From an uncultured Candidatus Saccharibacteria bacterium (GTDB lineage: Bacteria; Patescibacteriota; Saccharimonadia; Saccharimonadales; UBA4665), in NCBI GenBank assembly GCA_964426605.1, contig CAYRQK010000001.1:16419-80418 (forward strand): a stretch of DNA of 64,000 nt, in the 5' to 3' direction. How positions within the stretch are numbered: position 1 is the stretch's first letter; the number at the start of each line of letters is the position of its first letter. The translations under genes were made by a program, and so were the position numbers. The notes under the pieces are model-generated. The model was not told the DNA's origin and did not search any database. It saw only the letters and a list, made by a program, of their open reading frames with translations. Of the stretch, positions 26,779 through 29,168 are shown one piece after another.

Positions 26779-26853
26779 AATTTAGTTACAATAGTTAACA
26801 CTGAGGACCTCCAATCCTGATTAGCTTAAACTCCTCTGCTGTGAGGAGTTTTT
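26779..26853 (+). ncRNA. candidate small RNA/leader: conserved 36-nt motif (copy 1) plus terminator hairpin
   Basis: AATTTAGTTACAATAGTTAACACTGAGGACCTCCAA (26779-26814) matches copy 2 at 30 of 36 positions. It is followed by AAACTCCTC-tgctgt-GAGGAGTTT-TT (26828-26853). Confidence 0.4.
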
Positions 26854-26921
26854 CTGTATCTTTATTTTGTTAATCCCTATACTATTGATAACTATAAGCT
26901 TCTTAAAGCGAGAGAGACAAA

Positions 26922-28364
26922 ATGACATACATGCAAAAGTGGAAAACGCGGGTAAGTTTTTTGCTGGTCAGCACCTTGTTTTCGGGCGTCATCGCGGCGC
27001 CGAATGTCTTTGCAGCGAGCTACAATTTTACTGACGTCACGCCGACCGGACCTGGGCATAATCAAGATTGGTCGGCATATGCTAACAGTATCGACAAACA
27101 CTACATCATCACTGCAGTCGATGGGGGCGACATTTGGGCGTCGAGCGATTATGGGCAGACATGGACGGATGTTACTGCGACCGGGCCGATGCACAATCTT
27201 CGCTGGCAGCGGCTTGCTTCAAGCGATAGCGGTCACTACATGACAGCTATAGAAATTGGTACCAGTGGGGGCACCCTGATGGGCGACATTTGGGCGTCGA
27301 GCGATTATGGGCAGACATGGACAAATGTTTCAACGCTACCTGGCAATGCGGCATTGCACTTACAGGAATGGAGCCAGCTAGTCATGAACAGCGATGGGTC
27401 GAGCTTAGCAGTCGCTGCCGATTATGGGGATATCTGGACGTCGAATGATTATGGACAGACGTGGACGGACAGAACGCCGAGCGGGCCATTGCACGGAATT
27501 CGCTGGTGGGATGGAACGATGACGTTAAGTGGAAATGGCCGGTACCTCACGATCGAAAACGGAACAAAATCAAGTTACGGCATGTGGGCGTCGAATGATT
27601 ATGGACAGACGTGGACGGAAGTTATTCCACCATCTGCTGCGCCAAACCCTGCATTGGCCGTATCAGCGAACCGTGACTCCAGTCACCTGGTTGTAAGCAC
27701 TTTTAGCCTTAGCCCCGCCGTAGGCGAACTATTTAGCTCTACCGATCATGGGCAAATATGGGCGGATATTTCTCCTACGGGCAGCAGCCATAACTCAGCC
27801 TGGGTAATAGCCGGTACGAGCACCGATGGCAGCCACTTGTGCGCGGTGGGTTTCGATCTCGCCACCTATGCTGAAAGTGTTTGGACGTCGAGCGACTATG
27901 GACAGACGTGGGCGGAGGTCTCAATGCTGTCTGGCCGTTCGGTGTTGGCCAGTGATGCTTGGGGCGTCACATCTGATAACACTGGACGGATCCTAGTCGC
28001 GAATGACGGCACAGATACTTGGTTGTCTACCGATTACGGGCAGACGTGGACCAACGAAACGGCTGGTACCAACGCGCACGGTGTATCTTTTAGCAACATG
28101 CTTGTAAATAGCACGGGGAGCATGTTCGTTGGGTTTACAAACGGAGGGGATATCTGGAGCGCTTCGCTCATCGCAGTAAGTCCAGCTGCCAGTTCGAGTG
28201 CCCTAGCATCAAACGCAAGTGTTGCCATACCCAAAGCCCCCGACACCGGCTATGGCATGCCAAGCAGTTCCGACCCGCTAGTTGCGGCTATCATCGCTGG
28301 CGCTGTAATTTCCACTGGCGCAGGGCTACTATTGCTCTACCGCCAAAAGCGCGCGAAAGTTTAG
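26922..28364 (+). CDS. secreted Asp-box (BNR) beta-propeller protein with C-terminal sortase sorting signal
   Basis: Signal peptide (VSFLLVSTLFSGVIAAPNVFA). Seven S-x-D-x-G-x-T-W boxes (SSDYGQTW and variants). The C-terminus has KAPDTG, then a hydrophobic helix, then RQKRAKV. Confidence 0.8.
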   Translation: MTYMQKWKTRVSFLLVSTLFSGVIAAPNVFAASYNFTDVTPTGPGHNQDWSAYANSIDKHYIITAVDGGDIWASSDYGQTWTDVTATGPMHNLRWQRLASSDSGHYMTAIEIGTSGGTLMGDIWASSDYGQTWTNVSTLPGNAALHLQEWSQLVMNSDGSSLAVAADYGDIWTSNDYGQTWTDRTPSGPLHGIRWWDGTMTLSGNGRYLTIENGTKSSYGMWASNDYGQTWTEVIPPSAAPNPALAVSANRDSSHLVVSTFSLSPAVGELFSSTDHGQIWADISPTGSSHNSAWVIAGTSTDGSHLCAVGFDLATYAESVWTSSDYGQTWAEVSMLSGRSVLASDAWGVTSDNTGRILVANDGTDTWLSTDYGQTWTNETAGTNAHGVSFSNMLVNSTGSMFVGFTNGGDIWSASLIAVSPAASSSALASNASVAIPKAPDTGYGMPSSSDPLVAAIIAGAVISTGAGLLLLYRQKRAKV

Positions 28365-29044
28365 CTACTAACCAAGCTCGTAAGGACTACCAATCGCTCG
28401 TTGAATCCACTGGCGCCTTTAATGATCTGACCGGTGCAGGTCATGAGGTTCAGACCTGGTTTGCCCGGCTTAACTGGTGCCAATACTCGATTCATGTCAA
28501 CCTTTTTGTAGTCGTATATTTTCGAGCCGACAACTTGGTAGGTGAACTTTTTGTTGTCGCCGCGGGTGATGGTAATTTTATCACCGACTTGTAGTTTTTT
28601 TAGATTGTAAAACACGCCGTCGGCCGTCCAACTGGACACGTGGCCGTAGATGAACATCGCGCCATTTTGCCCGGGCTTGGTGCTGCCGTTGTACCAACCG
28701 GCATCGTAAATGTTATTCGGCGTGGCGATTTCGTTATTTTTCATCAACCCCAGCTGAATAATGCGGGCTTTAGAGAGATTGATGGCCGGAATGCTGATAT
28801 ATTTGGGCAAATCCGGGGCCACGCTATAGCTGTTAATGATTGCTTGCGGAGGCTTTTTAGATGATGGCACGTTTGTGGATTGTAGGACGTTGGCAGGTGG
28901 CTGCGGTTCGGTGCTACGGTCATGAATAAGCAGCAGGATGGCTGATGCGGCCAGGACAAGGCCGAGCGCAATGAGGAAGCCGGCTGTGAATTGCCATGTT
29001 CTTTTACGTCGCGATGATAGTCGTTTTTGTTTAAGCGTATCCAT
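28361..29044 (-). CDS. sortase (class F-like transpeptidase)
   Basis: N-terminal TM anchor, a catalytic His in FIYGHVSS, and a catalytic Cys in LNLMTCTG. It is convergent with the putative substrate gene, overlapping it by 4 nt. Confidence 0.8.
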   Translation of the reverse strand: MDTLKQKRLSSRRKRTWQFTAGFLIALGLVLAASAILLLIHDRSTEPQPPANVLQSTNVPSSKKPPQAIINSYSVAPDLPKYISIPAINLSKARIIQLGLMKNNEIATPNNIYDAGWYNGSTKPGQNGAMFIYGHVSSWTADGVFYNLKKLQVGDKITITRGDNKKFTYQVVGSKIYDYKKVDMNRVLAPVKPGKPGLNLMTCTGQIIKGASGFNERLVVLTSLVSS

Positions 29045-29089
29045 ACGAACATTCTACACTGTAGTAATAAACTTATGGGTGAGTCAGCT

Positions 29090-29168
29090 AATTCAGTTAC
29101 AACGGTTAATACTAAGGCCCTCCAAGCAAAGTTATGTTTTTAACAGAGATGCTGTGTTTCTGTTTTTT
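29090..29168 (+). ncRNA. candidate small RNA/leader: conserved 36-nt motif (copy 2) plus terminator hairpin
   Basis: AATTCAGTTACAACGGTTAATACTAAGGCCCTCCAA (29090-29125), then AACAGA-N11-TCTGTT-TTTT (29142-29168). The peptidase E -10 (29171-29176) follows the terminator. Confidence 0.4.

Follow-up and report, generated by a model that had tools for sequence, protein, structure and literature searches.

The window analysed here is a 64,000-nucleotide stretch (C1:16419-80418) of an 897-kb Saccharibacteria genome that was recovered in 7 contigs from groundwater metagenomes. Two 36-nt motifs in this window, at 26779-26814 and 29090-29125, bracket the convergent genes of an Asp-box surface protein and a sortase. 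We conclude that these motifs are att-type recombination sites closing the units of a gene-cassette array anchored at a tRNA-Lys gene, a reading to which we assign a probability of about three in four. It draws on sequence comparisons that reveal a common anatomy of sites and cassettes, a link to tRNA-Lys, the exchange of whole cassettes with breakpoints in the core of the site, and a family of large serine recombinases (LSRs) whose genes abut the same core in related genomes. The initial annotation took the motifs and the hairpins behind them for paralogous small RNAs or leaders, and alternatively for recombination scars around the surface-protein segment. Its description of the two motifs holds: they are identical at 30 of 36 positions and specific, as the degenerate 31-mer matches nowhere else in the window and in 0 of 100 dinucleotide shuffles. 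The third copy, described there as weak, lies where it was placed and shares 22/36 and 23/36 positions with the first and the second, but proves to be a typical member of the family. The three sites are designated IG1, IG2 and IG3.

At its 3' end the motif carries 10-11 nt (TGGCCCTCCA, optionally followed by A) that are identical to the acceptor 3' strand, the discriminator and the CCA of tRNA-Lys. The tRNA-Lys of the window ends in ...CCCACCTGGCCCTCCA, and the motifs end in ...GATGGCCCTCCA. A co-oriented tRNA-Lys gene is located directly upstream in 7/7 arrays with a visible start. The second array of this genome (array 2, C1:97044-102653) follows tRNA-Lys(CTT) and holds a cassette with a paralogous substrate and sortase. 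Across 80 loci from public genomes, which yielded 220 site matches, sites were never found on both strands within one locus. Of the 103 site matches in the 43 loci with a tRNA-Lys gene, 101 are positioned downstream of the tRNA gene and co-oriented with it, and the two exceptions belong to one array running into a second tRNA-Lys gene. Second tRNA-Lys genes inside an array, or tandem tRNA-Lys copies, were also seen, at L063:882-1731 and L123:2196-3045 and also in L072 and L123. In the former arrangement a 'cassette' of the array ends in a whole tRNA-Lys; L064 holds the same cassette without the tRNA. ARAGORN found no transfer-messenger RNA (tmRNA) gene in this genome.

Each site consists of a left arm of about 20-25 nt (consensus AGTTGCrATA-N6-ACnr) and the core TGGCCCTCCA. 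An alignment of 73 sites, on which column conservation was computed, resolves three blocks: a near-invariant AGTTGCrATA, a variable hexamer, and ACnrTGGCCCTCCA. Left arm and core are the only universally conserved part of the units. The family was recognised by short-word BLAST of the three intergenic regions of the window: IG3 closely matches sequence in front of the Asp-box paralogue that is encoded elsewhere in this genome, and has four matches on one contig of a genome from another genus (G038), two of which bracket a convergent substrate/sortase pair. A position weight matrix (PWM) derived from the copies found in this way detects seven copies in the genome, three in the window and four on the minus strand at C1:97044-102653, and no other sequence in the 897 kb reaches 8 bits; the best score outside the family within 25-33 kb of the window is below 0 bits. 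A sequence-only covariance model, applied to 401 genomes of the order (256 genera), found the site in 172 genomes (43%) and 137 genera. The typical arrangement is an array of same-strand sites spaced 0.3-2 kb apart, with up to about 20 units. Scanning 185,579 species genomes with the exact pattern returned 118 stretches, nearly all of them in Saccharibacteria/Saccharimonadales, and the exact degenerate pattern had no match in IMG/VR viral contigs.

The first two sites of the window belong to a subtype with the arm 'ACTrAGG', represented by 7/21 sites behind tRNA-Lys(TTT) vs 3/159 behind tRNA-Lys(CTT). At up to 9 substitutions, only two IG1/IG2-type copies exist in the genome, and the IG1/IG2 consensus with up to 3 mismatches has no match in 60 related genomes. 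This null search was misleading because the subtype is rare, and the likeness of IG1 and IG2 is due to the subtype carried by both rather than to a target duplication. The variable columns 9, 15, 21, 24 and 27 of the arm show a 3-nt period resembling third codon positions on either strand. Protein-coding constraint on the motif (LVAIASTMALQ on the plus strand, WRAIVDAIATK in reverse) was considered and rejected: there is no consistent start or stop, and the open reading frames (ORFs) differ outside the motif.

By our definition a cassette starts right after a core and extends through the core that follows; it usually comprises, in this order, a terminator-like hairpin (together with a -10 element in the inspected examples), one gene, and a left arm with its core. 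Pooled over all loci, 290 non-identical cassettes have a median length of 705 bp, and 72% contain a single ORF. The sites lie 3-26 nt past the stop codon of the preceding gene. A hairpin with a T-run was found within 62 nt after the core in 160/340 units (47%), against 33/340 (10%) in shuffled sequences, and in several cassettes the T-run merges into a TGnTATAAT-like -10 element just ahead of the start codon. Cassette ORFs point along the array in 82% of cases and are reversed in 18%, which shows that the site is not a promoter. In G049, about 20 sites occupy 11.5 kb between small unrelated genes, four of them reversed. The cargo is highly diverse, with 387 cassette ORFs falling into 301 families. 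Pfam domains in the cargo include NUDIX and HAD hydrolases, APH-type kinases, methyltransferases, radical SAM proteins, PIN/Phd, M23 peptidases, heliorhodopsin, MFS transporters, YcaO and ResIII helicases, among others. The radical SAM gene in the third cassette of array 2 (L026:6258-7089, minus strand, equal to C1:98257-99088) is interrupted by a frameshift that falls in a G5 run of its CxxxCxxC motif (CPVRCGG|CYNH), and represents either a pseudogene or an assembly error. A tandem duplication of two cassettes is present in L060/L070 (G037:C26, 591-1816 and 2553-3777), with 99.4% identity and a period of 1962 bp.

All-against-all BLAST of the loci shows that single cassettes are near-identical across genomes while their neighbours are unrelated. 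In the clearest pair, L076:3393-4214 and L178:6282-7103 share 99% identity over 822 bp, the cassette following a motif in L076 and directly following the tRNA in L178. The identity extends from CCCTCCA through the gene and the next arm, and ends right after the next CCCTCCA. The base before the first CCCTCCA differs (T vs G), and upstream of it an arm in one locus stands opposite the tRNA T-arm in the other. L064 and L092 repeat the same breakpoint pattern with 97% identity over 517 bp, after a motif and directly after a tRNA, respectively. These limits assign each arm to the cassette upstream of it and place the exchange point within the 7-nt CCCTCCA. More broadly, of 22 homology ends that were informative, 15 are no more than 36 nt away from a core, where the median core spacing is about 700 bp. 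In a contig that comes from a different study (X5) and is about 95% identical to the Asp-box gene, the match to the window sets in at 26808, within the IG1 core, and the first 59 nt of the contig have no match to the window. Whole cassettes are exchanged between genomes and between array positions, and the suggestion that the repeats are recombination sites bounding a cassette stands in a form generalised to the whole array. A scar of the insertion of the sortase cassette does not fit this arrangement, in which IG1 belongs to cassette 1.

These breakpoints bear on an explanation that requires no dedicated recombinase, with the 30-45-nt repeats acting as portable homology for RecA-dependent swaps after natural transformation. 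Saccharibacteria carry ComEC and pili. The comEC gene lies about 2 kb past the array, with the order tRNA-Lys(TTT), variable region and ComEC recurring in L185; the absence of a cognate recombinase from this genome and the confinement of universal conservation to arm and core, as expected of a homology arm on one side, would also suit such swaps. Homologous exchange, however, should not confine the exchange points of the two best pairs to CCCTCCA instead of distributing them along the 31-nt repeat, and the stretch of about 10 nt common to the positions after a tRNA and after a motif is too short for RecA. Strict co-orientation and anchoring by one tRNA species are typical of site-specific systems, and an LSR family uses exactly this core. 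We consider RecA-dependent exchange unlikely.

The serine recombinase in question is encoded in L076 by a gene for 561 aa on the opposite strand, which ends ...CTT GGA GGG CCA TAG, the antisense of the motif core. Of its 1404 homologues, the closest (at least ~60% identity) end in ...GGPGGT-stop or ...GGPGGTRTLDTLLKRQVL-stop. The tails of close homologues, ...KST[LSF]GGPGGT-stop or ...GGPGGTRT[LHQ]DTLLKRQVL-stop, are antisense translations of tRNA-Lys, and the LSR gene overlaps tRNA-Lys convergently in L181, L183, L185 and L187. In more distant clades the tails differ, for example ...TSRRIELRLPG or ...GDPTGNRTRVAGMRTQCPNR, and resemble other tRNA genes translated in antisense. The C-terminal 6-20 residues vary with the target (P0001-P0120), so that the tail must differ between the integrated and the excised state. 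The junction TACGA-TGGCCCTCCA-AGCGTA forms a dyad centred on the core, as expected for a serine-recombinase att site. The LSR is a plausible enzyme for the cassette sites, to which we give slightly less than an even chance. The two LSR genes of the present genome, inventoried by motif regular expression and blastp, lie outside the window at C1:4312-5889 (plus strand; tRNA-Met c[5868,5943]; tail ...GGFQYGGGAWT-stop) and at about C4:13320-14989 (minus strand; tRNA-Pro [13262,13337]; tail ...FVRGRGDRT-stop). Their last codons run antisense into the 3' ends of tRNA-Met and tRNA-Pro, indicating that these tails too are encoded by the target tRNA.

The tRNA-Lys LSRs head islands of 8 kb to >10 kb. 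Common to the islands are a small ORF at the start of the LSR and a TrmB-like gene, and most of them end in HTH and PLD-like genes; the cargo includes MmeI-type restriction, Fic, HipA and parts of diversity-generating retroelements. The distal bound of the ~8-kb element in L187 is a family site, TGTTTCAGAAAAGTATACGATGGCCCTCCAA, scoring 25.9 bits and matching the arm consensus at 15/23 positions, beyond which ordinary cassettes (RibD_C, HAD) continue. Integration of such islands at tRNA-Lys, and the family site at the end of the L187 island, could also be taken to mean that the arrays are debris of repeated island integration and internal deletions, with cassettes that are not themselves mobile. 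The pseudogene in cassette 1 of the window would agree with such debris, as would the structured remnant with a tRNA-type repeat in array 2, which has its homologue at the distal end of the island in L185. Debris would hardly account for 290 different cassettes with a tight size distribution, a uniform layout and no recombinase fragments, for arrays of up to about 20 units, or for single cassettes 97-99% identical across genomes and array positions between non-homologous neighbours; we regard this origin as improbable. The remnant itself, L026:11262-11452 (minus strand, equal to C1:103261-103451, outside the window), is a G+C-rich non-coding stretch of 191 nt, flanked on one side by the tRNA-Lys(CTT) terminator and on the other by a degenerate tRNA-type repeat, CCACCTGGCTCTCCAA. 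Its predicted fold has -90.3 kcal/mol (z = -4.0 against shuffles), it has no Rfam match, and its homologue is located at about 2440-2620 of L185.

If the motifs are att-type sites, a cassette would enter by site-specific recombination between its own site and either the tRNA 3' end or a core already in the array, with the crossover within CCCTCCA, and successive insertions would build up the co-oriented stack. Cassettes would presumably move as circles, with an LSR supplied in trans as the enzyme, this LSR not being encoded in the present genome. The array might then provide the epibiont with a flexible pool of genes for surface proteins, small hydrolases and the like. More tentatively, the system could be an integron-like capture platform that evolved independently and without integron parts, in which one-sided sites of ~31 nt, an LSR borne on larger defence islands and insertion at the CCA end of tRNA-Lys act together. 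Such a platform would handle non-autonomous cassettes of 0.3-2 kb, apparently with expression signals of their own, at either tRNA-Lys gene. The LSR tail, being encoded across the attachment site, would read ...GGP-stop beside a cassette arm, and ...GGPGGT-stop, or the ~15-residue-longer ...GGPGGTRTLDTLLKRQVL-stop, when fused to antisense tRNA; the state of the tail might set directionality.

Several observations weigh against the motifs being recombination sites of this kind. Rightward of the core the sequence varies between units, falling into at least three types plus many others, which leaves a complete two-sided att site undefined. The mapping of breakpoints to 7 nt comes from two cassette pairs. 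No recombinase gene lies in or beside the arrays of this genome. PF00589 matches one Xer-like tyrosine recombinase in the whole genome, on contig C2, and none at the arrays; tblastn with the Xer-like protein found no match in the array loci examined, and no IntI-type tyrosine recombinase adjoins an array. The two resident LSRs, at tRNA-Met and tRNA-Pro, are not homologous by blastp to the tRNA-Lys LSR family, and the absence of the latter leaves the arrays without a resident enzyme. Among the loci searched, L076 is the only one in which an LSR touches a cassette-type site, and two of three far ends of LSR elements carry a degenerate site or a tRNA-type repeat instead of the standard arm. Neither an excised circle nor an empty site was seen, and the window matches the contigs of three source-study runs without a difference; the runs containing the window sequence are DNA metagenomes. 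The sole candidate joint for gain or loss of cassettes in the source population, 25911 to 29780, was rejected as cross-mapping to array 2.

Small RNAs or 5' leaders of ~90 nt, with an exposed CCUCC pairing with Shine-Dalgarno sequences, would account for the excess of terminator-like hairpins after the core and for CCCUCC being unpaired in predicted folds, and no same-strand gene upstream of IG2 could supply read-through. As the initial annotation stated, both motifs of the window are followed by a hairpin and a T-run, the first called by the terminator scan and the second weaker, with a 9-bp stem. The CCTCC, read there as an anti-Shine-Dalgarno seed, is part of TGGCCCTCCA, and the tRNA-Lys 3' end accounts for it fully. 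The folds of the motifs do not differ significantly from shuffles (z = -1.4 and +0.6), there is no significant covariation, and Rfam, searched down to E <= 1, contains no match to the motif. The sequence in front of the motif shows no conserved promoter-like element, alignment columns 1-8 being variable. Neither the position of the sites 3-26 nt behind the preceding stop codon, nor the 18% of reversed cassette genes, nor the role of the sites as bounds of exchanged DNA would be expected of a small RNA gene, which makes this interpretation very improbable. Pairing of the variable block of the arm with the flank behind the core was examined and rejected: the family-wide duplex value of -4.42 kcal/mol is not significantly different from the random value of -3.99 +/- 0.27, and pairing in the cassette circle gives -4.18, with good arm-flank pairs in some genomes (ATAAGC...GCTTAT, ATAACC...GGTTAT). 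A sigma-70 or sigma-54 promoter or a response-regulator box was likewise dismissed, as no hexamer pair fits both IG1 and IG2, a scan calls none, and 18% of the cassette genes run against the array.

Features of the tRNA-Lys(TTT) array in the window (positions in the window; PWM, position weight matrix).
Feature	Position	Strand	Evidence
tRNA-Lys(TTT), anchor of the array	25834..25910	+	ARAGORN, Rfam
Last 10 nt of tRNA-Lys(TTT), TGGCCCTCCA, the core repeated in each motif	25901-25910	+	sequence, alignment with motifs
Cassette 1: hairpin, decayed PNP pseudogene, site IG1	25911..26814	+	stop-to-stop ORFs, Pfam PF01048
Terminator-like hairpin in cassette 1	about 25941-25962	+	sequence
PNP/UDP-phosphorylase (nucleoside phosphorylase) pseudogene, sole cargo of the tRNA-proximal cassette 1	about 25979-26752		PF01048
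Site IG1: left arm AGTTACAATAGTTAACACTGAGG, core ACCTCCAA, 'ACTrAGG' arm subtype	26779..26814	+	PWM 32.0 bits
Cassette 2: hairpin, Asp-box protein, convergent sortase, IG2	26815-29125		
Terminator-like hairpin AAACTCCTC-N6-GAGGAGTTT with T-run, opening cassette 2	26828..26856	+	terminator scan
BNR/Asp-box beta-propeller surface protein, cargo of cassette 2	26922..28364	+	PF15902, PF15899
Sortase, second gene of cassette 2, convergent with its likely substrate	28361..29044	-	profile match
Site IG2, closing cassette 2, arm subtype as in IG1	29090..29125	+	PWM 29.6 bits
Cassette 3: hairpin, -10, S51 peptidase, IG3	29126-29817		
Start of cassette 3: hairpin AACAGAGAU...GUUUCUGUU, T-run, TGT-TATATT	29142..29182	+	
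S51 (PepE-like) peptidase, cargo of cassette 3	29183..29773	+	
Site IG3, last of the array: mainstream arm AGTTGCGATAGTGCGAACGATG, degenerate core TCCCTCTAA	29781..29817	+	PWM 32.5 bits
Flank: HAD hydrolase, ATP-grasp, comEC	from 29818		
HAD hydrolase just past the last site	29894..30565	+	

The array of the window comprises three cassettes; the Asp-box, sortase and downstream HAD genes are those given in the initial annotation. The phosphorylase pseudogene of cassette 1 contains frameshifts and an in-frame TAA at 26645-26647, beyond which the frame runs on for 34 codons. The hairpin at the start of cassette 2, called by the terminator scan at 26828-26851 as 9 pairs followed by TTTTTCTG, is of a sequence type found after the core in many genomes. 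The Asp-box protein ends in a sorting-like signal (KAPDTG), a transmembrane helix and a basic tail, and the best profile match of the convergent sortase is class F, with a score below the cut-off. A paralogous pair is present in array 2 and an orthologous one between two sites in G038; judged from these sequence contexts, substrate and sortase travel as one cassette. The hairpin of cassette 3 (~29142-29168) has a 9-bp stem followed by UUUUUUG in the fold, is weaker than the hairpin behind IG1, and is not called by the terminator scan. It ends just before an extended -10 at 29168-29176, which is 6 nt upstream of the ATG; this short distance suggests a leaderless mRNA for the S51 peptidase. The same layout of hairpin and -10, already noticed for this unit in the initial annotation, recurs in other cassettes of the family, for example TTTTTTGCTATAATgaccctATG in L063.

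The HAD hydrolase gene behind IG3 is either chromosomal flank or the cargo of a cassette whose closing site is gone. Other arrays often contain HAD hydrolases as cargo, and a PWM scan of the region found no site-like sequence 3' of the gene. The comEC gene of the window (31807-33306) has a counterpart at 981-2435 of L185, from a distant relative, where it also stands beyond a variable region that follows tRNA-Lys(TTT). The position of comEC in both genomes points to a hotspot within a conserved interval from tRNA-Lys(TTT) to comEC.

A full-text literature search found no description of a tRNA-Lys cassette system in Saccharibacteria. The closest parallel in the granularity of units is provided by integrons, above all sedentary chromosomal ones, and clusters of attC sites lacking integron-integrases (CALINs). 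There, too, cassettes with mostly a single gene are lined up in one orientation in long arrays, and a copy of the recombination site closes each of them. The parallel extends to the great diversity of cargo (here 301 families among 387 ORFs), toxin-antitoxin genes included, to cassettes common to several genomes with breakpoints at the sites, and to the lack of an adjoining recombinase in most arrays. Integron attC sites are defined by their structure, an imperfect palindrome (R''-L''...L'-R'), and have a GTTRRRY core. The Saccharibacteria site, in contrast, is asymmetric and conserved in sequence; we rejected its assignment to attC, as it contains no palindrome, its GTTGCGA does not fit GTTRRRY, and its sequence is conserved across the order. 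The present system also differs from integrons in having neither an IntI tyrosine recombinase nor an attI, the docking point being the 3' end of tRNA-Lys. Its cassettes bring a terminator, and a -10 in the inspected examples, in place of a common Pc promoter, and the candidate enzyme is a serine rather than a tyrosine recombinase.

Staphylococcal cassette chromosome (SCC) elements are inserted by Ccr large serine recombinases at the 3' end of rlmH/orfX, their tandem units are split by direct repeats, and pseudo-SCC units without ccr are thought to be mobilised in trans. Composite SCC islands and the present arrays have in common the insertion at the 3' end of one conserved gene, the tandem units and the direct repeats. 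SCC units, however, measure 3-60 kb, contain multiple genes and form short arrays at a protein-coding target, whereas the units described here measure 0.3-2 kb, form arrays of up to about 20 at a tRNA, and carry a distinct conserved one-sided arm. The pdif modules of Acinetobacter plasmids, bounded by XerC/D sites in alternating inverted orientation, are similar in being small gene modules with short recombinase sites and no recombinase inside, found in many contexts. The sites of Saccharibacteria differ from them as direct repeats that are chromosomal, tRNA-anchored and devoid of a dif-like dyad.

The ssrA islands of Dehalococcoides (PMC3146451) and the tycheposons of Prochlorococcus (bioRxiv 10.1101/2020.12.28.424599) target the 3' ends of tmRNA or tRNA genes, with newcomers pushing older elements inward and leaving partial tRNA copies at the junctions; their cargo is adaptive or defensive, and some elements lack an integrase. 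They are multi-kb elements that typically carry an integration module or integrase (16/31 ssrA islands, PMC3146451; 937 tycheposon-type elements, 10.1101/2020.12.28.424599). Site-specific accretion at the 3' end of a tRNA or tmRNA is common to these elements and the cassette arrays, but the junction repeats of the former are plain tRNA fragments, whereas the arrays show a non-tRNA arm conserved across the order, and consist mostly of single genes without a mobility gene. As in tRNA-targeted LSR elements, the att core equals the tRNA 3' end and recurs as direct repeats. A recombinase at the edge of the element is absent from this genome and from most cassettes, and is found at the motif core in L076 and at tRNA-Lys in L181, L183, L185 and L187. 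The system is one of site-specific, tRNA-targeted accretion with integron-like granularity.

With their tiny genomes of about 0.9 Mb and their life on host bacteria, Saccharibacteria and other members of the candidate phyla radiation are considered to be poor in routes of gene flow. An order-wide cassette platform, if confirmed, would allow accessory functions to be varied while the minimal core is kept; such functions include surface proteins with matching sortases, small hydrolases, transporters, toxin-antitoxin pairs and restriction-type helicase genes. It would add a second design of integron-like system, one with tRNA docking and probably a serine recombinase, and would offer a natural, sequence-defined landing pad for genetics in cultivable Saccharibacteria. 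For annotation, the 31-nt site marks a flexible region of the genome and warns against labelling such repeats as small RNAs.

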